Assembly (NCBI GenBank): GCA_965230295.1
Contig: OZ246001.1
Location: 3,168,001-3,232,000, forward strand
Origin: Marinicella sp.
Lineage (GTDB): Bacteria; Pseudomonadota; Gammaproteobacteria; Xanthomonadales; Marinicellaceae
Length of the DNA stretch: 64,000 nt
Direction: 5' to 3'
The notes under the pieces are model-generated. The model was not told the origin of the DNA. It saw only the letters and a list, made by a program, of their open reading frames with translations, and made no database searches. Position numbers and translations under genes: made by a program. Positions within the stretch are counted from its first letter, which is position 1. Every line of letters begins with the position of its first letter. Shown piece by piece: positions 10,701 to 32,445 of this stretch.

Positions 10701-10705
10701 AATAA
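4793..10705 (+). CDS. Large secreted adhesin-like protein (DUF11-like Ig repeats, beta-helix-like regions, Big/cadherin-like domain)
   Basis: Signal peptide ...TNAFA; four FxKSF...TTTLTFTIDN repeats; two WFDGxNW modules; AIDDAFTVAED and VNDAPSF; DLIFANGFE; terminal DYDGDG. Confidence 0.85.
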   Translation: MTMKKAINISLATIFLFLSTNAFAQAPRFSKSFSDGLINVGETTTLTFTIDNSNSVLDLENAIFRDDYPLGLQTAAPSNLSFNCSGGIGNNLTYIETNLYVNAGEVCTVSIDVTGVSAGLQVNTTSEMTSSLGNAGPAQASIVVKDAGSPAFTKSFGAAQIEVGEVTFLEFSIDNTANASAANNLTFIDVLPPGIQVATPDNLDSSCGGITGVLSNQVDLSGTSLAAGESCLISLDVVGVSPGIQENITIDLTSSAGNSGPAVSSIEVLATPVPVFNKSFADASIEVGGTTTLTFTIDNTSVVTDANGMAFDDVLPAGIEIAVPDNLSNSCGGVVNLTPGQLSFSGGSVTANNSCQISVDVEGTNAGIQNNITTNLTSSIGASNPATDQIIIRDSGTPGFTMSFAASVVGQNTPVALTFMIDNSAIGSDATNMNFSHTLPTDMAIAALPNVSNNCTGGTVTAISGSSVISYNSGTVGANQSCELSVDVVGLEPGIYVNITSDLVSSLGNSGPALANLEVLIAPDFSLNTQTNYMSVGGVTTITYLISHLDGDADANSLNLTHLLPGGLELATPANAAHTCDGGVLTAVDGSNVLTYTGGALMQGSLCNISVDIMATSLGVQNGSSDDLTSNLGNSGSVDLNIEVIDAIEWNVAGSASWFDGANWMPNQVPNSALNVKINNGGTSAVGLDDDDIAMLDFGVGVDGGSGFLTFADDTSSEIEVNGAFDIGVTAQGSSTSTGRVEFLGDSNSLFDFRSDPSTMRIGVTQTDGDADGTLVFLDSFISSSPQFDALMVGVSDGSGSAMGTLVAVDANTSSIQTENNPVMIGVANSSGDATAIFNGTEVQNVGSFDAGVSHGAGHANATVDLGFSFKGTTNGGLQGPANIGITNDTGSATAVVNQQLDIFGTVTASRFTELNVGIANGTGAANGTLRNSNGISIPVINVGLNPGGGTADGLIYVDHGLIDTTTLTLGAGSVLQLNANSTTRAGNGFSGTVYSAVNANTAVLAGELIIDVSFLLTSPATFEVVNTNSPTGITGVFSTVTVNNLPSGFVVSSGVQLDNLGNQQFVVNITGTPVLPEWDNVNTGVDAGDWFDGGNWSGGFVPLAVDPAIVNNGGEALADSQTAPGTVSPRDIIIGQDGGTGIFRSEGVDVVPGFSFLIAKVSPLISAEQTATGDVVINDANIIVPPNDSPSTSVFDPGSVLAVGFAQGGGTADASMVVNNGSIQVGDDVLIGAALPIAVDATPTADASFTFNGAGIDVSTIEADSGNGDVHIAFAQDSNSGPGASPTAIATANINNATINADINIAETDAFTDDAISQATANNVVLSNLFVTGDLDIADVGAFDPRVQVTATATATITDVTFGPDSGSFSIGNVNAGDPDAIGTSISTSTWTRVSITDSDSDFGVADVSANRSNTVATVDAEVTFIDSILSIDDLNVGDVYAQENGVGNLTATLNLEQNTTVTGQELVLGEYSINDTARATSTVNLNVTDSTISLGDETVLGETRGSSTNSATEIIIGMTMTNSSLVSPAVNIAESLSPAGSLSATLSLNSGYVDTDALDLGTDGTIVFGLNGANRATLANVGDTNTYSAIDASDATIAGNIVVDFISPPPGGFFTYDLIVTESATALDDFSATASVLNLPASVNVSFFGVAEDNGVDVLRLVVASPLAIDDAFTVAEDSVNQSFDVQLNDDNLAINGVIIEAVSTPTFGSVSIAAGNDALIYSAGPDFCTIDSSLDTFTYTISGGSVATVTVNVTCVNDAPSFNVLGDVVVNTFDVSNNPLLISDFAENITLGPANESGQQIEGFNITVQSDTNGILSGISLANDATLSVNFSGSFGTALVDVTLQDNGGTANNGFDTSAVQSFSVIHTDLIFANGFEQATVFKVVNYLVKVQEQSVLGQGPVYLDAYDAIEFNGEIYRLYQDHHSVQQVAALNSWLHEVLMFTEPFEDYDGDGTQNLFDPQPFSANK

Positions 10706-10720
10706 CAATCTTGTTAACCT

Positions 10721-10755
10721 AAAAAAAAAGCCAGCTCCTAAAGCTGGCTTTTTTT
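10721..10755 (+). terminator. Rho-independent terminator
   Basis: A-tract, AAGCCAGCT-CCTAA-AGCTGGCTT stem, T-tract just after the stop at 10705. Confidence 0.85.
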
Positions 10756-10772
10756 ATGTCAATCACCTCAAA

Positions 10773-10821
10773 ACTAATCATCCGACCAAGGACTGGCATT
10801 CAATACACCACAAGCAAAATC
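10773..10821 (-). pseudogene. Diverged copy of the 3' end of the 15800-17422 gene (left arm of a direct repeat)
   Basis: 41/49 identical to 15799-15847; minus strand reads DFACGVLNASPWSDD* versus DFVWGVLNANPLSDD*. Confidence 0.8.
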
Positions 10822-11007
10822 CTAAGTCATTATTCAAAAACTCTAATGGGTGTTTGTCTGCGTTTTTGCCAATAACAAAAGATGTTCGCTCGTTTGACAT
10901 TTAGACACCTAAAAAAGCAGCAAAGCATAAATATTCATGGTTTTAGATTGATTTAAAACATTGTAAGAATTCTATATTAGTGTTATTTTGGATAATAAAA
11001 ATATTAA

Positions 11008-13698
11008 ATGATGCAAAAATCTCAAGAACTCAAACCCCATCAAGAATTAGCTGTTCATAGAATTAAAAATTCAATCCTGCTAAAAAATAACACTTTCACA
11101 AATGCTTATATTGCCTCTGGCGCTGGGCTCGGTCGGGTATCAATTGAAATATTGCTGTGGTTATTTGATAGATATGAAAATCTAATTGTAGTCACTGATA
11201 AAAAAATATTGCTACAACAATTGAACAAGGAGTTCAGACAATTTTTAAATATCGAAGAAACAGATCGGAAAAATCAATTCGATTCAAATCAAGAAATAAA
11301 AATTAATGATTCCTCAGTTAAATTTACTACGGTACAAAAGTTATTGTCTGATAATATCTCGATGGATTACCAAAAAAATGTAAATTGCATTTTGTTGTAT
11401 GACATGCCAGCAAATAGCCAAGTCAAACTGGTTAATTCATATTTAAATGATGAAAATAATATTAAAGTAATTTCATTGTCAGGTTATGAAATTAGGTCAA
11501 CAGAATGGAGAAAAATATTCGGAGATCCTGCTTTTGTATATTCATATGAGGATGCTATACAAGATGGTATTCTAAAGCCAGTCAAGTTTTTTCCAATAAC
11601 AGATCAACCAATTCAGTATTTTTATGATTCGGAGCAAATTAAAAACTTTTTGGATGTGTTGGTTGATGAAGTTAATTTAAATTATTCAGATAAACTGCTT
11701 ATTGTTTGTAAAAATACTTTAGAAGCAGAGCAAATTCATAGGTACTTTAAGAGTACTAACTATGAATCCTATTTATTAGTTTCTCAAAGAAAAAGGCTGA
11801 ATTATGATTTTTCAAGATTTATTAATAATACAAATAGTTGTATAGGAATAGTGGTCAATATTTTAACTGGCTTTAAGGTTCCTGAATTGAAAAACATTGT
11901 TTTGTTGTCATCAATAACTTCTGAGTTAAAGTTCAATAACATCATTTCATTAATCAGTCATAACAATTATTCTAACGATCTCGGAACGATTTGGGATTTT
12001 GGAGGTAATAAAAAACTAATAAAGAACGAATATGTAGTGATTGATGAATACGATAACTATGGGAGATTTGGTTTCTTGGATGAGTTTGATAACCTGTCTT
12101 ATGAAAGAAATACCCTAAGTAAATCAAACAGTGAATTTGATGATAACATCAAAGATTCTCAAGGTTTCAATGAAACAGAAGAAAGTGCTTCTACAAGATT
12201 TTTAGCTAATCCACATCATGACAAACCATCTAAAGTAGATCTGCTTGGAAGAGATGGGTTGGTTCACATTCTTAAAGGGATCATTAATAGAAACTCTAAT
12301 AAGCACATGATAATTTCTCTGTTTGGCCGATGGGGAAGTGGGAAAAGCTCAGTTATTGAGATATTGGAACAAAAGTTTGATGATGAAACTACTCATTTCA
12401 TAGTATTTAATGCTTGGCTAAACAGTCATACTGAGAATATGGTTGCATCAATTGCAACAAAAATTACTACCAGTATTTATTCAACAAAAGGTTCGTTAGC
12501 AAAGAATTTTTTAAGTTTTAAGTGGCACTTAAAGAATAAAAAAACTGATTTCAAATTATACTTTCTGGTATTAATTCTTCTGGTTATAACATTTTTTGCC
12601 TATTCAGTTTTAACTGGAGCAACTTTCCCAAAAGGCATTAGCTTAGGGGTTGTATTGACTGCTGTTTTGGCTCCATTTATAAAACTAATGTTCAATGCAT
12701 ACTCTAAATCGTTATTAATGAAGTTTAATAAAATTACAAAAAAGCCGAGCTATAAAACGCATATTGGTGTTTCAGAAACTATAAAAAATGAAATAAAAAA
12801 CCTCTTAATTATTCATGCAAAGTCTAAAAAAAGTCTGAAATACATTGTTGTAATTGATGATTTAGACAGGTGCTCAGATCAAAAGATTATTGATACCCTA
12901 GAGGCTGTACAGTTGGTTGTAGATATCGAGAATGTAATTGTTATTGTTGCTATTGATGAAGAAGTATTGATGCAAGCGGTTGCTAACTCATACAAAAGGC
13001 AACGAACAGATATTGATGACAATAAAGCATTTAGCTTGGCAAGAGACTTTTTGGGCAAAATTCTTCAAGTGACAATAACACTGGATAAACCCAATATGAC
13101 AAAACGAAAATTTTTTATCAAAGAAAGGTTGTATCCAGACGTACTCAAAAATGAAGAGTCCAGTGATCTCTCAAATTTAAACACGCTTAAAACAAGTAGT
13201 CAGTCTGGTTTGATTAAACATGAGAGTGAAAACTTATTCGATTATGAGTTGGATTTTGACGAAGATGACTCTTATGATATCAGTGAAAAATACTTAAGTG
13301 ATTCAGTTGATGAGTATGAGTTTTTCGAAAATTGTGTAGAAATTTTTAATATTGACAATCCTCGAACTATGATAAGACTTCATAACATTATTACTATTTG
13401 TAAAGGTTTATATCCAAACATTACCAGTACAAAAGAAAAACTTAGGATTTATATGTTTATTTCTTTTTGGTATGAAAAATATTCCAGCTCTATAGGCGAA
13501 GAAAAAACAAAACTATATGAGTTGATCAATAGTTTTGAATTAGATCAAAATGATTCAATTTCTGTATTCGCCAATAGAATTGGTGTTTTTAATAATGCAA
13601 AATACGATATTAAAAAAATTATCAGTAGAGTAAAGAATCTATCCTTACCCAGAAATGATTTAGAAAATTTCGATGCAGGTGATATGAAAGGCAATTGA
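11008..13698 (+). CDS. Degenerate HsdR-like SF2 motor domain fused to a membrane KAP-family P-loop NTPase
   Basis: KAP motifs GRWGSGKSS, two TM helices, IVVIDDLDRC, FLGKILQV, NPRTMIRLHN; N-half FGDPAFVYSYEDAIQDGIL aligns with HsdR; strongly AT-rich. Confidence 0.8.
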   Translation: MMQKSQELKPHQELAVHRIKNSILLKNNTFTNAYIASGAGLGRVSIEILLWLFDRYENLIVVTDKKILLQQLNKEFRQFLNIEETDRKNQFDSNQEIKINDSSVKFTTVQKLLSDNISMDYQKNVNCILLYDMPANSQVKLVNSYLNDENNIKVISLSGYEIRSTEWRKIFGDPAFVYSYEDAIQDGILKPVKFFPITDQPIQYFYDSEQIKNFLDVLVDEVNLNYSDKLLIVCKNTLEAEQIHRYFKSTNYESYLLVSQRKRLNYDFSRFINNTNSCIGIVVNILTGFKVPELKNIVLLSSITSELKFNNIISLISHNNYSNDLGTIWDFGGNKKLIKNEYVVIDEYDNYGRFGFLDEFDNLSYERNTLSKSNSEFDDNIKDSQGFNETEESASTRFLANPHHDKPSKVDLLGRDGLVHILKGIINRNSNKHMIISLFGRWGSGKSSVIEILEQKFDDETTHFIVFNAWLNSHTENMVASIATKITTSIYSTKGSLAKNFLSFKWHLKNKKTDFKLYFLVLILLVITFFAYSVLTGATFPKGISLGVVLTAVLAPFIKLMFNAYSKSLLMKFNKITKKPSYKTHIGVSETIKNEIKNLLIIHAKSKKSLKYIVVIDDLDRCSDQKIIDTLEAVQLVVDIENVIVIVAIDEEVLMQAVANSYKRQRTDIDDNKAFSLARDFLGKILQVTITLDKPNMTKRKFFIKERLYPDVLKNEESSDLSNLNTLKTSSQSGLIKHESENLFDYELDFDEDDSYDISEKYLSDSVDEYEFFENCVEIFNIDNPRTMIRLHNIITICKGLYPNITSTKEKLRIYMFISFWYEKYSSSIGEEKTKLYELINSFELDQNDSISVFANRIGVFNNAKYDIKKIISRVKNLSLPRNDLENFDAGDMKGN

Positions 13699-13852
13699 TA
13701 AACAATTTCAGTGGGATATAAAAATAAATAGGGCAAATCTGTTAAAACTGACTGGATAACACATGCAAAAGAATTGAATGGATTGAAACTGAAACCAGCT
13801 AATAATAGACCTTCTTATGAAAGTAAAACGCCCAAAGTACTATGAAAGTACT

Positions 13853-13864
13853 AAGGACAGGCAC
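13853..13864 (+). repeat. Solo copy of the transposase-end motif
   Basis: AAGGACAGGCAC, preceded by a local TATGAAAGTA duplication. Confidence 0.55.
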
Positions 13865-13896
13865 TACTAATAATTCTAATGGAAACCTGTTCTCGA

Positions 13897-14310
13897 TCAG
13901 TTCTTATTTCTTGTGACCACCACCGAAGCACTGGATCGTTCAGCGCCAACATCACACACGGCCTCGATGTTGTTGCCATCCGGATCCAACAGAAACGCGG
14001 CGTAATAAGAGTCGTGATAGCCTCGATAACCAGGCTTCCCGTTATCTTTGCCACCTGCATTCAGCCCCGCCTCATAAAATGCATGCACATCTTCGATAGA
14101 TTCAGCTTGCAAAGCCAAATGAAAATAAGCTGCTCGAGCACTGTCTTCGGCGATGTAAAACTCATCGAAATTGAATTCGTTATCGCCAACCCTAAAGCCA
14201 TCGCCCTTGCCAAGTGCATTCAGAATCGCTGAATAAAAGTGCTTACTCAGCTCGAGGTCTGAGACATAAACCCCAATATGATCAATCATTCTGCCTTGGT
14301 GGTATTTCAT
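13897..14310 (-). CDS. VOC (glyoxalase/bleomycin resistance) family protein
   Basis: MIDHIGVYVSDL, FHLAL, YYAAFLLDPDGNNIEAV; start may be ATG at 14289. Confidence 0.92.
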   Translation of the reverse strand: MKYHQGRMIDHIGVYVSDLELSKHFYSAILNALGKGDGFRVGDNEFNFDEFYIAEDSARAAYFHLALQAESIEDVHAFYEAGLNAGGKDNGKPGYRGYHDSYYAAFLLDPDGNNIEAVCDVGAERSSASVVVTRNKN

Positions 14311-14483
14311 ATCGCCCCCAAAAACACATCATTATAGAATGTAGTTGCAAGAATGTTCGGTGTCATCTTTTTCCTCAGTTGTTGATGTGCTTTGGGACTA
14401 GATATTACCACAATTAATTAAATGATCCTGATACCTATAACAGCTTGTGGGGCCCACAATGACAGTCATATTGAGGTAAAACC

Positions 14484-14495
14484 AAGGACAGGCAC
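14484..14495 (+). repeat. Solo copy of the transposase-end motif
   Basis: AAGGACAGGCAC, intergenic. Confidence 0.55.
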
Positions 14496-14601
14496 TGCTC
14501 AAAGAAACCAGTTTGAGTTTAAATTGATTAATTGAAGAACTGATCGTCAGTTTTCAGAGGTTGAGCACCTTGGCCCAATTCAGTTTATAATAAATTGTTG
14601 T

Positions 14602-15714
14602 ATGAATATGGATCAAAAAAACGGCCTATTGATTGTGGCACTCATGTTGTTGCTGTTTTCTTGTACCAACCACCACCAAACAAAGAAACAAGCTGCTTTC
14701 AAAGCATTCCTCTATGACATCATGATTGAATATCATTTGCCAGGATTGGCCGTGGCAGTCATCAGTGACGGAAAATTAATTGCGGTAGAAGAATTGGGTC
14801 TGCGCAGGGTCGACCTGAACACCCCCATACAAACTAATGACTCATTTCATGTGGGCTCTGTGAGTAAACCCATTTCAACAACTGTCATCGCGACCTTGGT
14901 TGAAGAGGGGATATTAAGTTGGGATACATCAATCAAAGCAGTGTTTCCGGAATTGGTTGGCGTCACACAAAACCAATATCATGATGTCTCAATTAAACAG
15001 CTACTGGCCCACCGAGGTGGAATCCTGGCCTGGGAGGAAGACGAAGAAATTGCTTTATTTAAACCTGAAAAGGGCAGTGCCCGAAATCAGCGGTATGCTG
15101 CTGTGACCTGGTTGTTGAACCAGACGCCTGTGGCTGAACCCGGGACAGCACATGTTTATTCAAATGCCGGTTACATGATTGCCGCAGCGATGGCCGAGAA
15201 GGTCACAGGAAAAGCATGGGAAACTTTGGTGATCGAACGCTTGGCGGTTCCGTTGGACCTTGAAAGTTTAGGCTTTGGCTGGCCTGCCAAAGAGGATGCC
15301 GATCAACCATGGGGCCATTACATGGTTGAAAATAACCCCATACCCCATCACCTGGATGACCTTTATGCTGCCGGACCGTTGTTGGTACCAGCAGGCGACA
15401 TTCACATGAACATCAGGGATTTGGCAAGCATCGCTCAACTGCACTTGGATGGCTTGCAGGAAAAGGCCCGACTATTAAGACCTGAGACCTTTGCTGAATT
15501 ACACAACCCGATGGGAGATTATGCTTTGGGCTGGAATATTCGATCAACAGCCAGCCACCATTTAGGTGGACTTGGCACATTCCTATCGGCAATTTGGATA
15601 TCTGTACCAAGAAACATTGCCGTTGTCATTTCGACCAATACCGATGCAGACAACGCCATTGCATCTAAAATCATCAGTGAATCCATTAAAACTTTCAACA
15701 CCGAAAGCCAATGA
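14602..15714 (+). CDS. Serine hydrolase, beta-lactamase class C-like family; probable lipoprotein
   Basis: SxxK (GSVSK), LLAHRGG, YSN, HLG; lipobox LLFSC. Confidence 0.88.
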   Translation: MNMDQKNGLLIVALMLLLFSCTNHHQTKKQAAFKAFLYDIMIEYHLPGLAVAVISDGKLIAVEELGLRRVDLNTPIQTNDSFHVGSVSKPISTTVIATLVEEGILSWDTSIKAVFPELVGVTQNQYHDVSIKQLLAHRGGILAWEEDEEIALFKPEKGSARNQRYAAVTWLLNQTPVAEPGTAHVYSNAGYMIAAAMAEKVTGKAWETLVIERLAVPLDLESLGFGWPAKEDADQPWGHYMVENNPIPHHLDDLYAAGPLLVPAGDIHMNIRDLASIAQLHLDGLQEKARLLRPETFAELHNPMGDYALGWNIRSTASHHLGGLGTFLSAIWISVPRNIAVVISTNTDADNAIASKIISESIKTFNTESQ

Positions 15715-15744
15715 TGCGAATCATTGGCAGGCACTACCAGTCAC

Positions 15745-15774
15745 AAAAAAGCCAGCTGAATAAAACTGGCTTTT
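15745..15774. terminator. Bidirectional terminator between convergent genes
   Basis: AAAAAAGCCAGCT-GAATA-AAACTGGCTTTT. Confidence 0.7.
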
Positions 15775-15799
15775 CATATCGATATCAAGAAGTTAGTTA

Positions 15800-21843: not shown

Positions 21844-24800
21844 TTGAGTAAGGGTTTTCAGTCAAATTTTGAATTCCTATCTGAATATAGTTCCGTTTTT
21901 AGTGATCTCGGCTATTCAGCCGAAATCAATTTCGTACCTGATCCCAATGTTTCATTAGTTAAACTAAGACAATTGGGAGAACTTTTAGCTTCAGAAATTG
22001 CAGCAAGAATTGGTATAGAACTAAATGATGAAATGCGCCAAGTTGATTTGTTGCGCCAAATAGATTTTAAAATGCGCCTAAATAGCAATATACGTGATGC
22101 ATTTCATAATCTTCGTAAAATTGGTAATAAGGCTGTTCATGATTTTCAATCTAGCACACACAGAGATGCATTAATTGCTTTAAATCTGGCATATATGCTT
22201 TCCGGCTGGTTTTACAGAGAGTTTGGAGGACCAAAAGGTGATAGTTTTAAGCTTGGAAAGTTTGTCAAACCTCAAGATCCTTCTGAAAATGTTAGAGATT
22301 TAGAAGAAAGAATACTTATATTAGAAAATTCAAGAATCAAAGACACTGAAAGGATCAAAAAAGCCAAAGCTCTTGAAGTCATACAAAAAGAGAAGCTTGA
22401 AGCAGAAAGAATAAGAAATGCAAAAATGCAATCCGAAAAAGAAATATTTGAGGAATTGGCATTAGAGGCAGAGCAAAAACTAGAACAAACCATAAAAGAA
22501 TTTGAATCCAATCAAATAGAGAAAGCACAAAGCTTCAATCAAAAAACAGCAGAAGAACAAAAAGAGTTCCTCGAGCTTATCGAAAACTCAACTTTAGACC
22601 TCTCAGAAGCTGACACCAGGATAATCATCGATCAACAATTGATCAATGCTGGGTGGGAAGCTGATACAGAAAACATAAGGTATTCAAAAGGATCAAAACC
22701 AGAAGCCAATCGCAACAAAGCCATCGCCGAATGGCCTACGGCCAGTGGACCGGCTGACTATGTGTTGTTTATGGGTTTAACTCCTGTAGCTGTTATTGAA
22801 GCCAAAAAGAAAATCAGAAATGTCTATGCTGATATAGATCAAGCCAAAAGATATTCCAAAGATTTTTTCACCAAAGACATTTGTGTGATCGAACAAAACT
22901 ATGGAGAGTATAAGATTCCTCTGGCTTACTCAACCAATGGAAGACCTTTCTTAAAGCAACTTGAACAAGAAAGTGGAATTTGGTTTTTGGATACAAGAGA
23001 GCCAACCAATCAGCGTCGAGTGCTACAAGGTTGGTATTCACCTGAAGAAATTAAAGAATACCTAAAACAAGATATACAGGGAGCAGAGAACAAGCTCAAT
23101 GAGATGGATTTCAACTATGACTTTACTCTCAGACCTTATCAGATAAAAGCCATCCAAGCTGTTGAATCATCTATACAACAAGGTGACCCAACCGCATTGG
23201 TCGCTATGGCTACAGGAACTGGAAAAACAAAAACCAGTATCGCACTGGTCTACCGATTGCTTAAATCAGAAAGATTCAGAAGAATACTGTTTTTGGTTGA
23301 TCGATCTGCTCTCGGTGAACAAGCAGCCGACTCGTTCAAAGAAACACGCATGGAAAACCTCAATACATTTGCAGATATATTTGGTTTAAAAGAATTAACA
23401 GATAAAAGCCCCGACACAGACACCAAAGTACAAATCGCTACAGTGCAAGGCATGGTTAAACGAATTTTTTATAATGATGGGGAGCAGATAAAACCAAGTG
23501 TTGGCCAGTACGATTGTATCGTCGTTGATGAATGTCATCGAGGCTATCTACTCGACAGGGAAATGGGCGAAACCGAACTTGAATTTCGAAATCAATCAGA
23601 CTACATCTCAAAGTACCGTTCTGTGATTGAGTACTTTGATGCTTTTAGAATCGGTTTAACAGCGACTCCTGCACTGCACACTTCAGAAATATTTGGCAAT
23701 CCTGTCTTTAACTACACCTATACAGAAGCTGTAGTCGATGGCTTTCTATCTGACCATCTACCGCCAATCAGAATCATCACAAAATTGGCACAAGATGGCA
23801 TAAAATATGAAGTGAATGAAGAAGTCCAAGTCTATGATCCACAAACAAATCAATTAGAGCTATTCAACACTCCTGATGAACTTGATTTTGATGTGTCTCA
23901 ATTTAATCGGAGTGTTATCAATGAAAACTTTAATTTAGCAGTGATCAAACATCTCATTGAAAATGATCTAATTGATCCTTATCAAGAATCAAAAACTTTG
24001 GTGTTTTGTGTGACTGACAAACATGCAGACATGGTAGTAGAACTTTTTCATAGGGTTTGTGATGAATACCACGGAGGAGTGGATGATGGAGCCATTCAAA
24101 AAATAACGGGTAATAGCGACAAGCCCTTAGAAAAAATTCGTTACTTCAAAAATGACAGGTTGCCCAATATCGCAGTTACAGTTGATCTTCTTACCACTGG
24201 AGTCGATGTGCCAAAGATCTGTAACTTAGTTTTCTTAAGAAGGGTTAATTCTCGTATTTTGTTTGAACAAATGCTTGGTAGAGCCACACGTCGTTGTGAT
24301 GAAATAGGAAAAGAAACATTTCGAATTTTTGATGCTGTAGATATCTACGAAAAACTGGAAGAAACCAGCAGCATGAAACCGGTGGCTACAGATCCTAAGA
24401 TAACGTTTACTCAATTAGAAGGAGAGCTGAGCAATCCTGAGCAAAGCGATCACCAGCAATTAGCCAAGGATCAATTTCTAGCCAAACTTCAACGCAAAAA
24501 AAGACACCTGACAGACCAACAAAAACACAAGTTTGAAACTGTTGCTGGACAATCACCCGAGGCCTTTATCGAAGACTTAAAATCAATGGATGTCAAGACC
24601 ATTGCAGAATGGTTCACTCAGCATCCAGGGTTAGGGGAGTTGTTAGATGCTCGTTATGGTGATAAACAGCTCAGGCCAGTGATCATTTCTGATCATGAAG
24701 ATAAAGTAGTGAATGTTGCTCATGGTTATGGAGACGGACAAAAGCCTGAAGATTACCTCAAAGCTTTCGAAAAATTTATCAAAGCCAACTCCAATCGCAT

Positions 24801-25245
24801 GCAAGCCTTACAATTAGTTGTCACCAGACCGTGGGAATTGACTCGAGAAAGTTTGAAAGAATTGGCCGTAGAATTGGATTTAAATGCCTTTCGTGAGCAA
24901 GATTTAAAAACAGCATGGTATGAAGCCACCAACCAAGACATCGCAGCACGCATTATTGGGTTCATTCGACAAGCTGCCATTGGAGAACCGCTAAAACCCT
25001 GGGAAGATCGAGTCAATAAAGCCTTAGAAATTTTGCTTGCCAGTAAAGACTGGAGCACACCCCAGAAAAAATGGTTACAAGCCATAGCCAATCAAACCAT
25101 TGCAACCATAATCGTAGACACCAAGGCTTTGGATCACGGCTATCTCAAAGATCAACTGGGAGGAATACGCCGTGCGAATAAGTTATTTGATAATAAAATT
25201 GAAGACATATTGATTAACTTTAACAAATCATTATGGAAGTCATAA
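21844..25245 (+). CDS. hsdR: Type I restriction enzyme R subunit (EcoKI-like, DUF4145 N-terminus)
   Basis: ADYVLF...IEAKK nuclease, MATGTGKT, VVDECHRG, GLTATP, QMLGRATR. Confidence 0.96.
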   Translation: MSKGFQSNFEFLSEYSSVFSDLGYSAEINFVPDPNVSLVKLRQLGELLASEIAARIGIELNDEMRQVDLLRQIDFKMRLNSNIRDAFHNLRKIGNKAVHDFQSSTHRDALIALNLAYMLSGWFYREFGGPKGDSFKLGKFVKPQDPSENVRDLEERILILENSRIKDTERIKKAKALEVIQKEKLEAERIRNAKMQSEKEIFEELALEAEQKLEQTIKEFESNQIEKAQSFNQKTAEEQKEFLELIENSTLDLSEADTRIIIDQQLINAGWEADTENIRYSKGSKPEANRNKAIAEWPTASGPADYVLFMGLTPVAVIEAKKKIRNVYADIDQAKRYSKDFFTKDICVIEQNYGEYKIPLAYSTNGRPFLKQLEQESGIWFLDTREPTNQRRVLQGWYSPEEIKEYLKQDIQGAENKLNEMDFNYDFTLRPYQIKAIQAVESSIQQGDPTALVAMATGTGKTKTSIALVYRLLKSERFRRILFLVDRSALGEQAADSFKETRMENLNTFADIFGLKELTDKSPDTDTKVQIATVQGMVKRIFYNDGEQIKPSVGQYDCIVVDECHRGYLLDREMGETELEFRNQSDYISKYRSVIEYFDAFRIGLTATPALHTSEIFGNPVFNYTYTEAVVDGFLSDHLPPIRIITKLAQDGIKYEVNEEVQVYDPQTNQLELFNTPDELDFDVSQFNRSVINENFNLAVIKHLIENDLIDPYQESKTLVFCVTDKHADMVVELFHRVCDEYHGGVDDGAIQKITGNSDKPLEKIRYFKNDRLPNIAVTVDLLTTGVDVPKICNLVFLRRVNSRILFEQMLGRATRRCDEIGKETFRIFDAVDIYEKLEETSSMKPVATDPKITFTQLEGELSNPEQSDHQQLAKDQFLAKLQRKKRHLTDQQKHKFETVAGQSPEAFIEDLKSMDVKTIAEWFTQHPGLGELLDARYGDKQLRPVIISDHEDKVVNVAHGYGDGQKPEDYLKAFEKFIKANSNRMQALQLVVTRPWELTRESLKELAVELDLNAFREQDLKTAWYEATNQDIAARIIGFIRQAAIGEPLKPWEDRVNKALEILLASKDWSTPQKKWLQAIANQTIATIIVDTKALDHGYLKDQLGGIRRANKLFDNKIEDILINFNKSLWKS

Positions 25246-25295
25246 TGAGAATAAACATTCATTAACTAAAACAAAACGAAGGAAAAACAAACTCA

Positions 25296-26780
25296 ATGAG
25301 CACAAAAGAACTGGTCGCAAAACTTTGGAACCTCTGTAACCTCCTCAGGGATGATGGAGTCACGTACCATGAATACATCAATGAACTGACCTTTTTAATA
25401 TTTTTAAAAATGGCCAAAGAAACCAGTACCGAAGAGGTTCTTCCTGAAGGTTATCGGTGGAGTGATCTAGTTGGTTATGATGCAGCCAGCCGATTAGAAG
25501 AGTACAAAAAAATGCTTATCCACCTAGGTTCTCATGGTTCTCAAGTCACAAAGTCAATCTATGCTAATGCAAACTCAGTGATCAGAAAACCTTCTACGTT
25601 GACAAAATTGGTCACTGAAATTGATAAACTGGATTGGTACAGTGCCAGAGAAGAAGGCCTTGGCGATATGTATGAAGGCCTCTTGGAAATCAATGCGACT
25701 GAGAAAAAATCCGGTGCCGGTCAGTATTTCACACCACGCGTATTGATTAATATGATGGTCGAATTGATGAAGCCAACATTAGAAGATGTCATCGTTGACC
25801 CAACAGCAGGAACCGGTGGATTTCTCATCAGTGCTCACCACTATTTAGATGAGCACAATGACATCGATTTGCTTGATGAAAAGGCATACGATAAATACCA
25901 GCACAGAACATTTTACGGAATGGAGCTGGTACCCGATGCCCGACGTCTGGCAATGATGAACCTGATGTTACACAAACTGGCTGTTAATGATGAAAACTCT
26001 GGGATCCTCTATGGTGATACGTTATCGAATGAAGGCAAGCAGCTTCCACAGGCCAGCCTAGTTTTAGCCAATCCACCCTTCGGAACCAAGATGGGTGGAG
26101 GTGTGCCAACGCGTGACGATTTGGTGCATTACACCAGTAACAAACAATTGGCCTTTTTACATTTAATCTACCACCGCATGCTCAAACCAGGTGGTAGAGC
26201 AGCCGTGGTCTTACCTGATAACGTTTTGTTTGAAGGTTCTACAGGAAAAACCATTCGCCAAGATCTGATGGATAAATGCAATTTGCACACCATTTTGCGA
26301 CTTCCCACCGGTATCTTTTATGCTGCAGGGGTGAAAACCAATGTGCTATTCTTTCAAAAATCTGCCAACCCCAATCAAGACAAAAACAACACCAAAAATG
26401 TTTGGGTCTACGACTTGCGTAACAATATGCCGCAATTCGGCAAACGCACTGTCCTAACCAAATCTCACTTCGATGAATTTTACCAAGCCGTTGGTAGTGA
26501 TCTCACAAAAGTTGATGACAAAGCCCGTGATCAATTTATCAAAAAGCACAAAGACGATACTGATGGTTGTCGCCTACGTTGTTTTACTCGAGAAGAAATT
26601 GCTCAAAAAGAAGACTCATTGGATCTTGCCTGGATACGAGATGATTCCACCGAATCTGCAGCTGATCTTCCTGAGCCTGATGTGTTAATTAATGAAGCCA
26701 TGGAAGAACTGGCAGGAGCGATGAAATATTTGAGGTTGATTTTGGCAGAGTTGGAAGAAAATGAAGGGGCCAATTTGTGA
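25296..26780 (+). CDS. hsdM: Type I RM N6-adenine methyltransferase M subunit
   Basis: GQYFTPR, DPTAGTGGFL, NPPF; EcoKI-like N-terminus LVAKLW. Confidence 0.97.
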   Translation: MSTKELVAKLWNLCNLLRDDGVTYHEYINELTFLIFLKMAKETSTEEVLPEGYRWSDLVGYDAASRLEEYKKMLIHLGSHGSQVTKSIYANANSVIRKPSTLTKLVTEIDKLDWYSAREEGLGDMYEGLLEINATEKKSGAGQYFTPRVLINMMVELMKPTLEDVIVDPTAGTGGFLISAHHYLDEHNDIDLLDEKAYDKYQHRTFYGMELVPDARRLAMMNLMLHKLAVNDENSGILYGDTLSNEGKQLPQASLVLANPPFGTKMGGGVPTRDDLVHYTSNKQLAFLHLIYHRMLKPGGRAAVVLPDNVLFEGSTGKTIRQDLMDKCNLHTILRLPTGIFYAAGVKTNVLFFQKSANPNQDKNNTKNVWVYDLRNNMPQFGKRTVLTKSHFDEFYQAVGSDLTKVDDKARDQFIKKHKDDTDGCRLRCFTREEIAQKEDSLDLAWIRDDSTESAADLPEPDVLINEAMEELAGAMKYLRLILAELEENEGANL

Positions 26781-28477
26781 GTAAGATTCCAGAAAATTGG
26801 TCATATTTAGCTTTAGACGAAGCTGCTCAATTAATTAGAGGTGTCAGCTATAAAAAAAGTGAATCTAGTATGCAGGATCAAAAAGGTTATTTGCCAATTT
26901 TGAGGGCAAATAACATACAAGATGGAAGATTGATTTTCAATGATTTGATTTTTGTACCCAAAGAAAAAATAAAGGACTCTCAACTAATAAAATTTGGTGA
27001 CGTTATCATTGCTATGTCTAGTGGTAGTAAAAAATTAGTTGGGAAAAGTGGAATTGCTAAATTTGACTACGAAGGAGCTTTTGGAGCATTTTGTGGGCTT
27101 TTAAGGCCAAACAAAAATCTCTGCATGCAATATGTAGGTTGGTTCACAAGAAGCAAAGAATACTCCCTGAAGGTTTCTTCATTATCTAAAGGTGTTAATA
27201 TTAACAATCTTAAGCCATCACATTTTAAAGAAATACAAGTACCATTAGCACCACTAAACGAACAAATCCGCATTGCCAAAAAGCTAGACTCTTTATTGAC
27301 CAAAGTCCAATCCGCCCAAGCCAAACTTGAAAAAATCCCAACCCTCCTTAATCGCTACTGTCAATCGGTATTGGCTGCTGCAACAACAGGTAAATTATCA
27401 AATAACAATAATTCGCTAGAGTTAGATAGCAAAGGATTTCCAAAAAACTGGACATATAAAAGATTTAAAGAGCTTGGTGAGTTATCAAGAGGTAAATCAA
27501 AACATAGACCACGAAATGACCCCAAATTATATGGAGGGGATTACCCATTTATTCAAACAGGAGCTGTTGCTCAATCAGATGGTTGGATTAAAAATCATAA
27601 TAAAACATATAGTGAGTTTGGGTTGAGCCAGAGTAGACTTTTTCCAGAAAATACACTTTGTATTACTATTGCAGCTAATATTGCAAACACAGCAATATTA
27701 ACTTATCCAGTTTGTTTTCCTGACAGTGTAGTTGGTTTTATTGCTGATGAGTCAATTTGTAATGAGATTTATATTAAATATCTTATTGATATATTTAAAG
27801 AAGACTTAGAGTTACTAGCCCCAGCAACAGCACAAAAAAACATTAATTTAGGTATTTTAAATTCATTGGACTTACCAGTCCCTTCTCTTGAGGAACAAAA
27901 AGAAATCGTCCGTCGTGTTGAAAATCTATTTTCACTTGCAGATCATGTAGAAAAACAATACCAAAAAGCCAAAACTCAAGTTGACCGACTCACTCAATCC
28001 ATCTTAGCAAAAGCCTTTCGCGGAGAACTCGTCCCTCAAGACCCTAATGATGAACCTGCTGAAAAGTTATTACAAAGAATTAAAGCAGAAAAAGACAAAC
28101 TAAAAAAAGTAACTAAAAAGACAACAAAGAAAAAAGTTATGAAAGATAAAAAGCAGAGTTTAAAAGAGTTAGATACAAATGTAAGCAAGCCATTTAAATT
28201 AAATGAAGCAATCAGTAGTCTTACAGTCATAGAACACAGCCCATGGCCAAATAATGAGAACTTTAAAAAGTTTAATTCTGTTGCTCATAACTTAATTGGA
28301 CAGGTTTTTACTATAGATCAGTTTAAAAATATGATTGGTTTTTCAGGGGATTTTGATGAATTAAAACGATTGGTTTTTTTCCTACTAAAAGGACATGACA
28401 ACAATAATCCGATTCTAGAGCTAGTTCATTGGTCAAAAGCTCCAGGAGAATACAAGTTTAGGGTTATTGAGAAATAG
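26777..28477 (+). CDS. hsdS: Type I RM specificity subunit with a ~130-aa C-terminal extension
   Basis: Two TRDs with PLNEQIRIA and PSLEEQKEIV spacers; ILAKAFRGELVPQDPNDEPA; GTG start overlaps the hsdM stop. Confidence 0.95.
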   Translation: MSKIPENWSYLALDEAAQLIRGVSYKKSESSMQDQKGYLPILRANNIQDGRLIFNDLIFVPKEKIKDSQLIKFGDVIIAMSSGSKKLVGKSGIAKFDYEGAFGAFCGLLRPNKNLCMQYVGWFTRSKEYSLKVSSLSKGVNINNLKPSHFKEIQVPLAPLNEQIRIAKKLDSLLTKVQSAQAKLEKIPTLLNRYCQSVLAAATTGKLSNNNNSLELDSKGFPKNWTYKRFKELGELSRGKSKHRPRNDPKLYGGDYPFIQTGAVAQSDGWIKNHNKTYSEFGLSQSRLFPENTLCITIAANIANTAILTYPVCFPDSVVGFIADESICNEIYIKYLIDIFKEDLELLAPATAQKNINLGILNSLDLPVPSLEEQKEIVRRVENLFSLADHVEKQYQKAKTQVDRLTQSILAKAFRGELVPQDPNDEPAEKLLQRIKAEKDKLKKVTKKTTKKKVMKDKKQSLKELDTNVSKPFKLNEAISSLTVIEHSPWPNNENFKKFNSVAHNLIGQVFTIDQFKNMIGFSGDFDELKRLVFFLLKGHDNNNPILELVHWSKAPGEYKFRVIEK

Positions 28478-28481
28478 TGTC

Positions 28482-29954
28482 ATGTATTTAATGAGTTTGT
28501 TTTACAAAAGTAATTCTAATGCATTGAAAACATATGATTTCAATTTTTACACAGACAGGATCCACAGTAATAAAGTTGAACCGATTTGTTTAGTTGGGCT
28601 TAACGGATCGGGTAAATCAAAGTTAATTGAAATTATCGCTGAAATATTTTTTGTATTGGATGCCAATCGTCAAATGAAACATTCAACGGCTGACCAAAAG
28701 GCTTGTAAATCTGACTTTCGTATGACTTATCAGATTGGAATTATACCAAAAGAAAAAATAGTGAAAATTAAAGGTAGGTTTAGACAAACGCCAGAAGTAA
28801 CTGTTAATGACGAGCTACTCTCAGTCGAACACTACGGAGATATTCTTCCTAAACATATTGTTGGGTACTCTTCTGGGCATAATGAAACAATCAGTCCAAA
28901 ATTTTTCACCCTTAGGAAAAATGACTTAGCTAGAATGCGTAAGTCTATCGAAGACGATAAGTCAGAAAATCTTGATTTAACGAGAACACTTTTTCTTGAT
29001 AGAAACACCAGTATTTTGTTGTTAATAACAATATTTGTTTTTAATCAGGTTAAAGGAAAGTTAAACCCTTTTATCAAAAAAATTAACAAGCATCTTAAAT
29101 TAGATTCAATTTCAACCTTCCAAATATTAATCACAAATCTAAAAGGTACTATTCGTTTCTCCAGAAAAATGGAAGAAATAATCCTTAAACTAGAAAAGTG
29201 TTCATTATTAGATGAAACATCTATTGAAGATAATAATCGCAGTTATAGGTTTGAATTTTTTTTAAATGATGTATCAAGAAAGGCCTTTGTTGACCAATTC
29301 AAAACCCCTCAGGATCTTTTTAATGATTTATATGGACTACATAGCTTGAATCTTTTAGACGACTCTCAGAAGAATAGTATATTTAGAATTTCTGAAGAAG
29401 AAATTAAAGTGACTCTAAGTGAGCCACAGGTAGAGGCCACTTATAAAGATATGAGTGATGGTGAACATCAATTTATTCAAATTTTTGGCTCATCGTACAT
29501 CTTTGCCAATGACAATTCAATTTTTCTGTTTGATGAGCCAGAGAGTCATTTTAACCCAGTCTGGCGTGCTAAGTTTGTAAATATACTGAACGAGATTCTT
29601 GAAGACGATCTTAATGCGGCGGAATTTTTATTATCAACCCACTCGCCATATATTGTTTCTGCTTGTAAGAGAGAGAATGTATTTAAATTTAACAGAACTC
29701 AAGATGGGATTATTCATGAGTTTTTAGAAGATCAAACTTTTGGAGCATCATTTGATGTGTTGCTTGAAATGTTGTTTGATATGAAAGGACTTGTTTCGGA
29801 ATTGGCTAAAAGGAAAATGAAGGAGTTGGTAAGATCTGAAATACCAAGGGAGAAAAAAATAGAAAAATTAGAAAATGAATTCGGAGATTCATATGAGAAA
29901 AGACTGTTAATAAACATGTTAAACAAAGGATTGCTAGATGCTGTTTCCAGTTGA
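28482..29954 (+). CDS. Restriction system-associated ABC/AAA ATPase (PtuA-like)
   Basis: Walker A GLNGSGKS, signature MSDGEHQ, Walker B FLFDEPESHFNP, H-loop STHSPY; ATG at 28482 (track uses TTG at 28467). Confidence 0.9.
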   Translation: MYLMSLFYKSNSNALKTYDFNFYTDRIHSNKVEPICLVGLNGSGKSKLIEIIAEIFFVLDANRQMKHSTADQKACKSDFRMTYQIGIIPKEKIVKIKGRFRQTPEVTVNDELLSVEHYGDILPKHIVGYSSGHNETISPKFFTLRKNDLARMRKSIEDDKSENLDLTRTLFLDRNTSILLLITIFVFNQVKGKLNPFIKKINKHLKLDSISTFQILITNLKGTIRFSRKMEEIILKLEKCSLLDETSIEDNNRSYRFEFFLNDVSRKAFVDQFKTPQDLFNDLYGLHSLNLLDDSQKNSIFRISEEEIKVTLSEPQVEATYKDMSDGEHQFIQIFGSSYIFANDNSIFLFDEPESHFNPVWRAKFVNILNEILEDDLNAAEFLLSTHSPYIVSACKRENVFKFNRTQDGIIHEFLEDQTFGASFDVLLEMLFDMKGLVSELAKRKMKELVRSEIPREKKIEKLENEFGDSYEKRLLINMLNKGLLDAVSS

Positions 29955-31056
29955 AAAAGTTGATACAAACCTATCATATTTAAATGAAGTTCTTAAAAAT
30001 TTTATTTTGGCATCAATCAATGAGAACAGATATTACAAGAAAAAATTATTCCCGAAAGAGTTTTTAGTCGTACATGATAATAAGAGCAATGTAGTTGATA
30101 AAAAGTTTAAACAAGCTTTTTATTCCATAAAAAATCTAGATGGTCCAGAAAAACGAAGATTGAGAAGAATGTATTTTAATCAGCAAAGAGTAAAACGGCT
30201 GTGTAACTCATTAACTATTCCTATCATCTCTTTGGACAGCTTCCCCCCAAAGTTAATTGAATCATTGAAACAGTTAGGAGAGTATTTGTATTCGAGTGTA
30301 TTGAATCAAAAAGCATTCACAAATCTAGCAAATGTACAAGAAACATTAAGTGGACATTGGTCAAGATTCAAATTTGTCAATGGGAATGTGTGTTGCTTTT
30401 GTGGAATTAATGATTATGAAGAGCAATTAGCTAATGTACCAAACCAAAATCAATGGAAACCAGCATATGACCATTATTTGCCTAAATCGAAATACCCTTT
30501 TGCGGCAGTTTGTTTTGATAATCTCATTCCAGTATGTTTTCAATGTAATAGTAAGGCTAAACGAAGTTTAGACCCATGTTTTTGTAAAGATAAATTGCGA
30601 CATAAATCATTCTATCCCTACAGCAATTATAGAGATAAAAGATTGAAATTAAAGGCAAATATATCGGAAGTGGATTCTGAAAGCACTGTTTTTCTGGATG
30701 ATTTTTGGTCGGTTTATTTGTTTGATGAGCAAAGTTCACAATTAATTTCTTGGGATCGATTATTTGATGTAAAAAGAAGAGTAAAAGAGAGAGTTAATAG
30801 GAAATATTTATTATGGTTGGAAGAAATAATAGATAGTGGTTTTGAAACAATAACGAAATTAAAGGCAACCTTAAAAAGTAAATCAGTTTTCTTCGAAAAC
30901 AAAATAAGAGAACAAAGGGGCGCTTATCATAAAGCCATGTTATTCCAGGAATTGGAAGCATTATCAGATGAAATGTTACTTTCAATTACCAATTCAATAA
31001 GAAAGTTACCATCTGATGAAATTGAACTGATGAATCAATTTCAAGAGAGATTTTAG
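29938..31056 (+). CDS. HNH endonuclease (PtuB-like)
   Basis: CCFC...YDHYLPKSKYP...NLIPVCFQCN; overlaps the ATPase stop. Confidence 0.88.
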   Translation: MLFPVEKVDTNLSYLNEVLKNFILASINENRYYKKKLFPKEFLVVHDNKSNVVDKKFKQAFYSIKNLDGPEKRRLRRMYFNQQRVKRLCNSLTIPIISLDSFPPKLIESLKQLGEYLYSSVLNQKAFTNLANVQETLSGHWSRFKFVNGNVCCFCGINDYEEQLANVPNQNQWKPAYDHYLPKSKYPFAAVCFDNLIPVCFQCNSKAKRSLDPCFCKDKLRHKSFYPYSNYRDKRLKLKANISEVDSESTVFLDDFWSVYLFDEQSSQLISWDRLFDVKRRVKERVNRKYLLWLEEIIDSGFETITKLKATLKSKSVFFENKIREQRGAYHKAMLFQELEALSDEMLLSITNSIRKLPSDEIELMNQFQERF

Positions 31057-31083
31057 TGTGGCGAAATGCTTCAACAACTTTAA

Positions 31084-32445
31084 TTGAGTAAATATATGGA
31101 ATTCATAGCAAATGCACTAAACGGAAATTTTTTAACCAATATACTTCCTACTGATGAAGATGAGGTCGAAGGGGTATTGGCTGCAATAGCTTATGGAGAT
31201 GATAAGCTCAACGATAATGATAGTTTACTGGGAAACTGTATATCAAATGGATTTAAGTTGGATATATGGATGAGGTATGACCACACTGTTCCAGTTAGTG
31301 TTAATCTATTGAAGAAACTACTGAGGTCTCATTCTAAAAATATTTATTGCAAATTGATACCCGATTGCTTGCACAGCAAACTCATTTGGTGGAAGGGGTA
31401 TGGAGCCTATATTGGTTCTGCAAATTTAACTCGAAGGGCTTGGTTTAATAATATTGAGACTGGATTGTTTTTGACAAACGAAGAGCTGATTGACAACTCT
31501 CTGGATATTCAATTCGAAGACTTTTTCGAAAATTTAGAAAACACCAAGCAAGCGTTTCCTCTTACCCAAGAAATCATTAATGAAATGCAAGAATTGCATA
31601 AGATAAGAGGCAATCGAGATCAAATAGGAAAAGATAAGCGTTCAAGCCCTTATTGGGGTGGACCTACTAACCTCGATAAGAAAAGTACCGCTGATAGAAG
31701 AAAAGCGAACTTCAAAAAAGAGTGGCTTGAAACATTAAGTTATCTTCGAGACATTGGAAACCAATTGAATGACTATCGACCCAGCTGGGTTAATGAAGAC
31801 ATTCCAGATGGATGGCATGCTGACCAGTTCCTTCATGCATATTATTATAATAAAGTCAGTGATGGTAGGCAGAGGCCTTACTGGAACTTTCATGAAAAGA
31901 ATAAAAGTAATCCACAGGCTGCACTTGTTGAGGCAATGAGGTGGTGGCAGAACGAACCAACACCACCCTCACATGAAGACAAAACATTGTACCAAAGTGC
32001 TCCATTTATTCAGAGCGTACTGAGCAGAGAAAACATATCTAAGTTAACACTCGATCAATTTATAGAAGTTTGTGGATATACTCATGCCACAGAAGACCAC
32101 ATAATTAAATTTCCATTGGAACTATTAGGAAAAGGAGAAATAAAGTCCATGTCACAAGAAAAGAGGATCCCAGTTGTTTCAGAATGGATTTGGAATCAAA
32201 GAAATGAAAAAGGGTGGAATGTGGCTCAACTTTTGAGCTATGTTTTATATGGAGGAAAAGATACCGACTTATGGGAGCGGCTTTACAACAGTGGTCGTGA
32301 ACCTGAATACAGAATTAAACGTTATGGATTGAACTCAATTGCTGAAGTTATTGGCTGGGCAAGACCTGACATAAGTCCTCCAAGAAATGGAAGGACGAGT
32401 AAGGGGTTAAGAGCACTGGGTTACAGTGTGGAAATATACACATGA
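31084..32445 (+). CDS. Phospholipase D-family nuclease with C-terminal helical domain
   Basis: Single HxK motif LHSKLIWWKGYGAYIGSANLT...NIETG; alternative start ATG at 31096. Confidence 0.8.
   Translation: MSKYMEFIANALNGNFLTNILPTDEDEVEGVLAAIAYGDDKLNDNDSLLGNCISNGFKLDIWMRYDHTVPVSVNLLKKLLRSHSKNIYCKLIPDCLHSKLIWWKGYGAYIGSANLTRRAWFNNIETGLFLTNEELIDNSLDIQFEDFFENLENTKQAFPLTQEIINEMQELHKIRGNRDQIGKDKRSSPYWGGPTNLDKKSTADRRKANFKKEWLETLSYLRDIGNQLNDYRPSWVNEDIPDGWHADQFLHAYYYNKVSDGRQRPYWNFHEKNKSNPQAALVEAMRWWQNEPTPPSHEDKTLYQSAPFIQSVLSRENISKLTLDQFIEVCGYTHATEDHIIKFPLELLGKGEIKSMSQEKRIPVVSEWIWNQRNEKGWNVAQLLSYVLYGGKDTDLWERLYNSGREPEYRIKRYGLNSIAEVIGWARPDISPPRNGRTSKGLRALGYSVEIYT

Follow-up and report, generated by a model that had tools for sequence, protein, structure and literature searches.

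KAP NTPases have only recently been shown to protect against phages, and how they sense infection is not known according to PMC13552941, which reports that KAP NTPases joined to other regions protect enterococci from phages and that both the Walker B motif and the fused region are required. Among the related systems described in PMC13001434, PifA, a KAP member, depolarises the membrane and makes the cell leak nucleotides. Tmn, a more distant relative, has a variable domain with which it recognises a phage protein; ATP turnover then increases, Mg2+ is exported and the Septu and Gabija systems are awakened (PMC13001434; 10.1101/2022.08.21.504612). In another arrangement, PrrC is kept silent by the restriction system EcoprrI until a phage peptide inhibits restriction (10.1101/2022.08.21.504612). 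Here we describe a gene at 11008..13698 (+ strand) in a stretch of 64,000 nucleotides of Marinicella sp. DNA (contig OZ246001.1, positions 3,168,001 to 3,232,000; hereafter the window, whose numbering is used unless a homologous locus is named). The open reading frame (ORF) has an ATG start, is open and complete, and encodes 896 aa which, from the translation and Pfam matches, comprise a degenerate motor of the HsdR type, a disordered linker and a KAP NTPase with a predicted membrane hairpin. From sequence comparison and structure modelling, we propose with a probability of roughly 55% that the product is a candidate for phage defence by a single protein of the KAP NTPase class, whose pseudo-helicase part would be the sensor controlling a membrane KAP switch. 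That KAP NTPases serve as defence proteins, for which an earlier reading of the window from its letters alone (the sequence-only reading) had cited PifA, has been demonstrated for this general build (PMC13552941).

The N-terminal domain (residues 1-345, 11008..12042, + strand) was assigned by BLASTP, hhalign, Foldseek and AlphaFold2 as a two-lobe domain of superfamily 2 (SF2) of the HsdR kind with degenerate ATPase motifs. Pfam recognised ResIII over residues 7-127 (E 6.5e-10, 39.6 bits against a cut-off of 22.5) and SWI2_SNF2 over residues 55-195 (E 1.3e-10, 41.7 bits against a cut-off of 26.7). When residues 1-399 were compared by BLASTP with the HsdR encoded farther downstream in the window, residues 8-314 aligned in order with residues 429-812 at 20% identity (E 1e-6), and hhalign matched columns 5-332 of the family profile to 425-837 of the same HsdR with a probability of 99.8% (E 8e-28), an alignment that takes in both RecA-like lobes. 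The AlphaFold2 model, built from 31 alignment rows, had a mean predicted local distance difference test score (pLDDT) of 75.4 and a predicted template modelling score of 0.51; it shows strands and helices over residues 10-345, and most 10-residue blocks of the N-domain scored 78-94. Its top PDB match in Foldseek was the HsdR fragment 3h1t (E 3.9e-11, TM-score on target 0.51), followed by SauUSI, LlaBIII, RadD, XPB and EcoR124I HsdR; at the sequence level, no PDB entry matched the N-domain with E < 0.4. Residues ~5 to ~340 are therefore predicted to form a two-lobed SF2 motor of the HsdR kind. This is followed by a low-confidence, disordered linker (residues 346-400, 12043..12207, + strand) whose pLDDT falls below 50 over 349-352 and 355-393 and whose gapped, unconserved columns show it to vary in length across the family. 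The C-terminal part of HsdR is absent, and Pfam detected no nuclease domain, HSDR_N or other, in the fused protein.

The residues expected of a working motor are largely gone from this domain. Motif I reads A-S-G-A-G-L-G-R (residues 36-43, 11113..11136, + strand), in which, by the alignment columns, L41 stands for the lysine and G42 for the Ser/Thr. The remnant of motif II, C-I-L-L-Y-D-M-P (residues 127-134, 11386..11409, + strand), has one acid and no His; hhalign pairs Y131 with the Asp and D132 with the Glu of VVDECH, and P134 falls at the His position. Motif VI (QxxGRxxR) has disappeared, N311, S314, L315 and H318 standing at its positions. All three motifs are intact in the window HsdR and in the outgroup match P0020.

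The remainder of the protein is a P-loop NTPase module of the KAP family (residues 401-880, 12208..13647, + strand), identified with PF07693 and PADLOC models. The PF07693 KAP_NTPase match covers residues 425-801 (E 2.3e-38, 132.6 bits against a cut-off of 20), and the PADLOC models for QatA, PifA and PDC-S20 match this part only. By pattern, Walker A is G-R-W-G-S-G-K-S (residues 440-447, 12325..12348, + strand) and Walker B is D-D-L-D-R-C (residues 617-622, 12856..12873, + strand). Between them lie two hydrophobic helices (residues 512-564, 12541..12699, + strand) predicted to form a membrane hairpin, seen as Kyte-Doolittle segments 512-541 and 542-564 and as helices 513-536 and 546-566 in the AlphaFold2 model. 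In KAP NTPases, membrane helices are reportedly inserted within the NTPase domain. The KAP half is thus intact in its catalytic residues, with a predicted two-helix membrane hairpin. The description of the protein given by the sequence-only reading stands on each of these points: the N-terminal ~340 aa align in order with the downstream HsdR (every peptide pair that it listed was reproduced), their predicted fold is SF2-like, the catalytic motifs and the nuclease domain are missing, and the KAP half retains its motifs and two predicted transmembrane helices.

The fused pseudo-HsdR/KAP family is rare. When residues 1-400 were used in a word-based homologue search, nothing but the query came up, and an exhaustive search with residues 1-399 against 1.84 billion representatives gave 23 proteins at E <= 0.001. 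Thirteen of these besides the query are 820-960 aa long and match at their N-terminus, all 13 with KAP motifs; the other hits are fragments, genuine HsdR/Res-like enzymes (P0020, P0022) and one repeat protein. With the fused clusters added by a word-based profile search, 28 distinct full-length proteins were available. The clusters are small (1-11 member sequences each), their named sources being metagenome-assembled genomes (MAGs) of Sphingobacteriales and Oleiphilaceae. Scans of genomes and metagenomes placed fused members in three Shewanella species, in Pseudoalteromonas, in MAGs of Oleiphilus, Nitrospirota and Sphingobacteriales, and on scaffolds from Tara and other metagenomes. Searches of plasmids (39 records), phages (1 record) and IMG/VR (3 loci) returned distant KAP-domain matches and no fused member. 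In the literature no helicase-KAP or HsdR-KAP fusion was found described, though the founding KAP paper and the supplements of PMC13552941 and PMC13001434 could list some.

Loss of ATPase motifs from the N-domain is a family-wide trait. Motif residues were counted over the 28 distinct full-length proteins, with three duplicate rows dropped and P0003, P0012, P0014, P0015 and P0019 left out as truncated fragments. Two acids at motif II occur in only one protein, the motif II His in none, and a single acid at the Glu-aligned position in 24. The motif I lysine, lost in the window protein, is kept in 18 and the full GK[ST] in 13; at motif VI the Gln and the first Arg are each found in 8/28 and the second Arg in 18/28. 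K446, D618 and D620 of the KAP module, by comparison, are each present in 28/28, and this module is the best conserved part of the family. Positions of the N-domain that are invariant or nearly so are G40, W329-D330, Y178, A183 and C234. Since an acid remains at the Glu-aligned position in most members, and the motif I lysine and the second motif VI Arg each in 18, it could be argued that the N-domain has kept an enzymatic activity, as an SF2 ATPase or translocase of non-canonical type that uses this acid and other residues. However, the window protein has Leu for the lysine and neither Arg of motif VI, and the lysine has been lost to six states (L, R, Q, V, A and gap), three of which (Q, L and gap) occur within the close clade P0029-P0034 plus L014. 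Furthermore, hydrolysis in SF2 helicases is known to require both the Walker A lysine and the DExx glutamate. We consider an active motor the most improbable of the explanations entertained here.

Compared with the described systems, the fused protein belongs to the KAP family and is distinct from QatA, PifA, Tmn and HsdR. In common with PifA of the F plasmid, EF_KAP and their relatives it has a KAP core that passes the Pfam threshold, a defence-island setting, helices within or close to the NTPase domain, and a single polypeptide that links the NTPase to another region which sets the function. It differs in that the tested KAP proteins carry C-terminal regions of unknown fold (PMC13552941) rather than an N-terminal degenerate HsdR-type motor. 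The PADLOC model of PifA matched residues 423-698 (E 2e-24) but over profile positions 30-259 of 720 only, and similarity along the full length was not found; PifA is moreover said to be without membrane helices (PMC13001434), unlike the predicted hairpin of the window protein. QatA gave the best match for the KAP part in both PADLOC (E 1.8e-25) and NCBIfam (E 7.6e-29), but the NCBIfam equivalog scored 100.8 bits against a cut-off of 600 and the match was limited to residues 404-726. The neighbouring window genes, for a 1970-aa repeat protein and a glyoxalase-family protein, do not form a qat operon, the QatB-D models not having been searched by name. Tmn, of the YobI family, is also a P-loop NTPase in which two membrane helices separate Walker A from Walker B, and a single-gene sensor-effector whose variable domain sets its specificity. 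This domain, however, is a C-terminal solenoid (PMC13001434) rather than an N-terminal pseudo-helicase, and neither PADLOC tmn nor Pfam YobI-ATPase matched the window protein at E <= 1; some relatives score marginally for YobI-ATPase. Tmn cooperates with Septu and PrrC (10.1101/2022.08.21.504612; PMC13001434), and some fused homologues adjoin Septu; PMC13001434 reports no conserved neighbourhood for Tmn. With HsdR, finally, the window protein shares both RecA-like lobes in order, F-G-x-P-x-F-x-Y after motif III and W/F-D-F after motif VI. It differs from HsdR in lacking the nuclease and C-terminal domains, in its degenerate motifs I, II and VI, in being joined to a membrane NTPase, and in an N-domain ~85 residues shorter than the aligned part of the window HsdR.

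The N-domain is under purifying selection, looser than that on the KAP half. This was estimated by the Nei-Gojobori method on two close pairs of homologous loci, with a Fisher test of pN = pS. Between L014 and L095 the dN/dS of the N-domain was 0.268 (344 codons, Fisher 6.5e-9) and that of the KAP remainder 0.135; between L102 and L097 the values were 0.303 (345 codons, Fisher 1.1e-9) and 0.065. Neutral decay, which the sequence-only reading had named as what would overturn its proposal, is thereby ruled out. As a separate observation, the fused gene of L097 (5987-8641) falls into two ORFs of 641 aa and 239 aa despite 89% identity to the intact L102, representing either a broken gene or an assembly error.

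As a cassette, the N-domain has also been swapped on at least two occasions between KAP backbones that are nearly identical. In L013 and L014, both from Shewanella, residues 41-321 are 23-47% identical while from residue 362 on identity is mostly ~90%, with the exception of two 40-residue blocks at 53-60% around the membrane hairpin. At the DNA level there was no match over the N-domain segment, against 79% identity for HsdR/SoFic/HsdM, 81% for HNH and 86% for KAP. Similarly, identity between P0026 and P0028 is 98% over KAP and 33% over the N-domain, and the pattern is reversed between P0013 and P0026, where KAP is 73% and the N-domain 94% identical. Modular exchange of this kind is as expected of a part that sets specificity. 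In addition, the same KAP subfamily occurs with other N-termini, in sister proteins 37-40% identical to the window KAP half (39% for L012), as close as the fused members are. L012 (Arenicella, 968 aa, 8714-11620) begins with MrcB_N (28.2 bits against a cut-off of 25), P0036 (666 aa) matches EVE weakly, its 18.3 bits falling short of the cut-off of 23, and five sisters (P0037-P0040 and L093) have a short N-terminus with no recognised domain. McrB-N and EVE domains are readers of modified DNA, known from type IV restriction systems.

These properties suggest how the protein might act. The predicted hairpin would anchor the KAP module to the inner side of the membrane, and the pseudo-motor, presumably no longer translocating, would serve as a specificity or sensor module, its most likely ligand at the membrane being invading DNA or a phage factor. 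Once bound, this ligand would switch the KAP NTPase, probably as an oligomer, leading to a membrane-associated arrest of infection through loss of ions or nucleotides or through activation of a partner, for example the upstream nucleases of several homologues; the window copy, which is without such a partner, would act alone. We rank a sensor of DNA or of a phage factor above a decoy because MrcB_N, or possibly EVE, replaces the N-domain in the sister proteins, one of these two supports lying below threshold. The presence of MrcB_N or a weak EVE in its place seems to fit a DNA sensor at least as well as it fits the bait or monitor suggested by the sequence-only reading, whose interpretation is, overall, partly supported. 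If the proposal is correct, the fused family provides a recognisable sensor candidate for KAP NTPases, namely a restriction-enzyme motor whose fold is kept and whose chemistry is lost, which is selected, swapped as a module and replaceable by readers of modified DNA. Since the N-domain is selected, exchangeable and replaceable, domain swaps, binding assays and escape mutants can be designed.

Several observations weigh against this proposal. The suggestion that the N-domain binds DNA comes from the domains that replace it, of which the EVE match is below the Pfam threshold. The calculated isoelectric point of the N-domain is 4.9-9.0 across the family (6.9 in the window protein) and mostly acidic, and so gives no hint of strong unspecific DNA binding. 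The window N-domain is among the most degenerate of the family, and since the motif I lysine is kept in 18/28, nucleotide binding may matter in part of it. No separate effector domain was recognised in the fused family. One tested KAP defence protein is reported not to act by abortive infection (PMC13552941), so the outcome at the membrane may or may not be abortive. Lastly, an upstream nuclease accompanies the fused gene in three clades (see below) and is lacking from the window, so the solo copy could be incomplete.

The fused family lives in defence islands, often in or beside type I restriction-modification (RM) operons. Defence-related neighbours across the fused loci include Septu PtuA/PtuB, SoFic, HNH, RnlA toxin and integrase. 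RM genes were counted at fused loci with >= 10 kb of sequence, which left out L009, L010, L016, L020, L091, L092 and L094 as shorter than 10 kb. Type I RM genes lay within the 10 kb flanks, on the same strand, at five of eight fused loci, and HsdM/HsdS-like matches at 5/8 compare with 7/72 other KAP loci of >= 15 kb (Fisher 0.0014). This value overstates the RM link because L013, L014 and L095 are one lineage, so that the five positive loci represent only about 3 independent lineages, because seven short loci were dropped, and because some Hsd queries were taken from the family's own loci. The arrangements are varied. In L011 (Nitrospirota MAG, 6100-15914) the fused gene (902 aa) follows hsdM (836 aa) and hsdS (426 aa) and precedes hsdR (1094 aa). 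L013 and L014 have the order hsdR, SoFic, hsdM, hsdS, Septu ptuA/ptuB, HNH and fused gene, and L095 has hsdM, hsdS and a ptuA-like gene with the fused gene farther along. In L015 the order is hsdM, hsdS, hsdR, a methylase-S fusion, a 379-aa gene and the fused gene, and the McrB_N form in L012 is preceded by hsdM, hsdS, a Schlafen/AlbA_2 gene, hsdR and a YgjP-like peptidase gene. No RM genes were found in the flanks examined of L096, L097 and L102, which have an integrase and RnlA toxin, or HNH_2 directly upstream. The supposition that homologues sit near type I RM consequently holds for five of the eight loci and not for these three, nor, as to operon membership, for the window gene. Within the Shewanella islands we also observed that a SoFic-like Fic gene stands between hsdR and hsdM (L013 1865-3049, L014 724-1890) and that a GajB/UvrD-like 1002-aa gene comes after the fused gene in L014.

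This setting raises the question of whether the fused protein guards restriction. The pseudo-HsdR might dock on the core of the type I methylase, or be bound by anti-restriction proteins as an integrated decoy, and the KAP NTPase would fire once the contact is lost or the bait is captured. The specifically HsdR-like nature of the N-domain in Foldseek and hhalign, the enrichment of M/S-like genes given above, the position of the fused gene between hsdS and hsdR in L011, its place after hsd genes on the same strand in L012, L013, L014, L015 and L095, and the type I RM system 8 kb from the window gene would all be consistent with such a role, as would the cassette exchange, which fits an arms race with phage inhibitors. 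There is also the precedent of PrrC (10.1101/2022.08.21.504612), which shares with the family a location inside an hsd operon (that of the type Ic system EcoprrI, in the case of the family for homologue L011 only), a possible link to anti-restriction, and the coupling of suicide or arrest to an NTPase switch. PrrC differs in being an ABC-type ATPase with a HEPN nuclease and no HsdR-like part, as described in the same source. The window fused gene lies outside the hsd operon, another difference. The prrC gene sits between hsdS and hsdR. If this view were correct, the family would be a fused, single-chain counterpart of PrrC-EcoprrI, in which an attack on restriction fires a membrane NTPase and the bait alleles are shuffled by recombination. 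What bears on a possible likeness to the integrated decoys of plant NLRs is the resemblance to HsdR and the cassette exchange.

A number of findings argue against guarding, however. The N-domain is without the nuclease and C-terminal regions of HsdR and only about 20% identical to the HsdR nearby. It is through its C-terminal part that HsdR assembles onto the methylase. An exchange of the N-domain separates L013 from L014, whose HsdR and HsdM are still about 79% identical in DNA; the domain can be replaced by McrB_N, a weak EVE match or nothing, three loci are without RM in the flanks examined, and the window gene is outside the RM operon; the positive loci are also few in lineages and favoured by the choice of Hsd queries. 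A complex prediction for the window HsdM with the N-domain scored 0.02 against a mark of 0.32, which counts neither way. On balance we regard guarding of restriction as unlikely, and a sensor of DNA or of a phage factor is preferred. In either case, the frequent place of the family in type I RM operons beside Septu makes it a test case for cooperation or guarding between defence layers.

A second feature of the homologous loci is a nuclease gene with its end 10-41 bp upstream of the fused gene, seen in three clades and with three different folds: HNH in L013, L014 and L020, HNH_2 in L097 and L102, and an EC042_2821 restriction-endonuclease-like gene in L010. In L095 the same HNH gene lies ~3.8 kb upstream with other ORFs between. 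The fused protein might thus regulate a two-gene nuclease system as one of its subunits, with its pseudo-motor and KAP parts recruiting or licensing the upstream nuclease, and the window copy, for which no relative of these nucleases was found across the window, might be an orphan of reduced or no function. Yet a nuclease directly upstream is missing from L009 and L096, its place is taken in L011, L012 and L015 by HsdS, a YgjP-like peptidase or an unassigned protein, and the partners are conserved within clades only. Moreover, the window ORF runs unbroken for 896 aa and has every KAP residue, and single-gene KAP proteins do protect (PMC13552941). A two-gene system with an orphan in the window is accordingly judged improbable. 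A universal partner gene was considered as well and rejected, upstream and downstream neighbours alike being conserved within clades only.

In the window itself, the fused gene is solitary, outside any operon and without an upstream partner gene, and is present as one copy in the 4.0-Mb genome. Its GC content (guanine plus cytosine) is 0.29-0.32, compared with 0.46-0.51 in the upstream 1970-aa gene and 0.46-0.50 in genes from 14.5 kb on; we call it a single-gene islet on the basis of GC alone. The 5' neighbour encodes the 1970-aa repeat protein, adhesin-like by eye, and the 3' neighbour is the convergent glyoxalase-family gene. An A-run, GC-rich hairpin and T-run at 10721..10755 (no strand assigned) ends the 1970-aa gene and parts it from the fused gene; it was read by eye and is unlisted in the consensus terminator scan. 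The consensus scan for promoters and terminators gave 15 promoter-like sites, where 17.7 were expected.

The stop codon of the fused gene and the start of the HsdR gene downstream are 8.1 kb apart, in agreement with the 8 kb given by the sequence-only reading, with five unrelated ORFs of higher GC in between. The HsdR gene opens a lower-GC island (21844..32445, + strand), identified from ORFs, Pfam and PADLOC and given here as context, with no claim that it belongs to the system. The island comprises HsdR (1133 aa, 21844-25242), HsdM, HsdS, a Septu-like pair and a PLD-like gene. The first gene of the pair is a PtuA-like ATPase (PADLOC PtuA model, E 6.4e-44) and the second, a PtuB/PDC-M62B-like gene, matches PDC-M62B/M01B, and PtuB weakly; the PLD-like gene has weak DrmC/ZacB matches. 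In the Shewanella islands with fused genes, HsdR and HsdM are 41-48% identical to their window counterparts. The window fused protein is 33-36% identical to P0002, L009 and P0004 and 27-28% to the Shewanella forms, and hence sits on another branch of the family. Since it does so, the fused gene and the RM island of the window are separate acquisitions in one variable region. No fused form was found in 40 genomes related to that of the window, where weak KAP or HsdR matches only were obtained, and conserved synteny was not found when the DNA of 8500-16000 was compared with 23 genomes of the genus, whose DNA has diverged too far to show an empty site. We regard the fused gene as a candidate for horizontal acquisition.

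The lone position of the window copy, between an adhesin-like and a glyoxalase-family gene with no defence genes adjoining, together with the lack of a fused relative in those 40 genomes, might instead indicate a membrane NTPase with some role other than defence, or a gene decaying after transfer. Such an interpretation is very unlikely, as the reading frame is open and complete, both halves are under purifying selection in two close homologue pairs, and most homologous loci have a defence-island setting.

Three other features of the window were observed. The 1970-aa ORF (4793-10705, + strand) has a signal-like N-terminus and many internal repeats, and is overlapped by long antisense ORFs. A 322-aa ORF (3270-4238, - strand) in a stretch of GC 0.38-0.41 gives a weak IS200-like Y1 transposase match (E 3.5e-5). 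An 871-aa ORF (17969-20584, + strand) combines DUF805, FAD_binding_4 and a C-terminal methyltransferase domain, which is an unusual combination.

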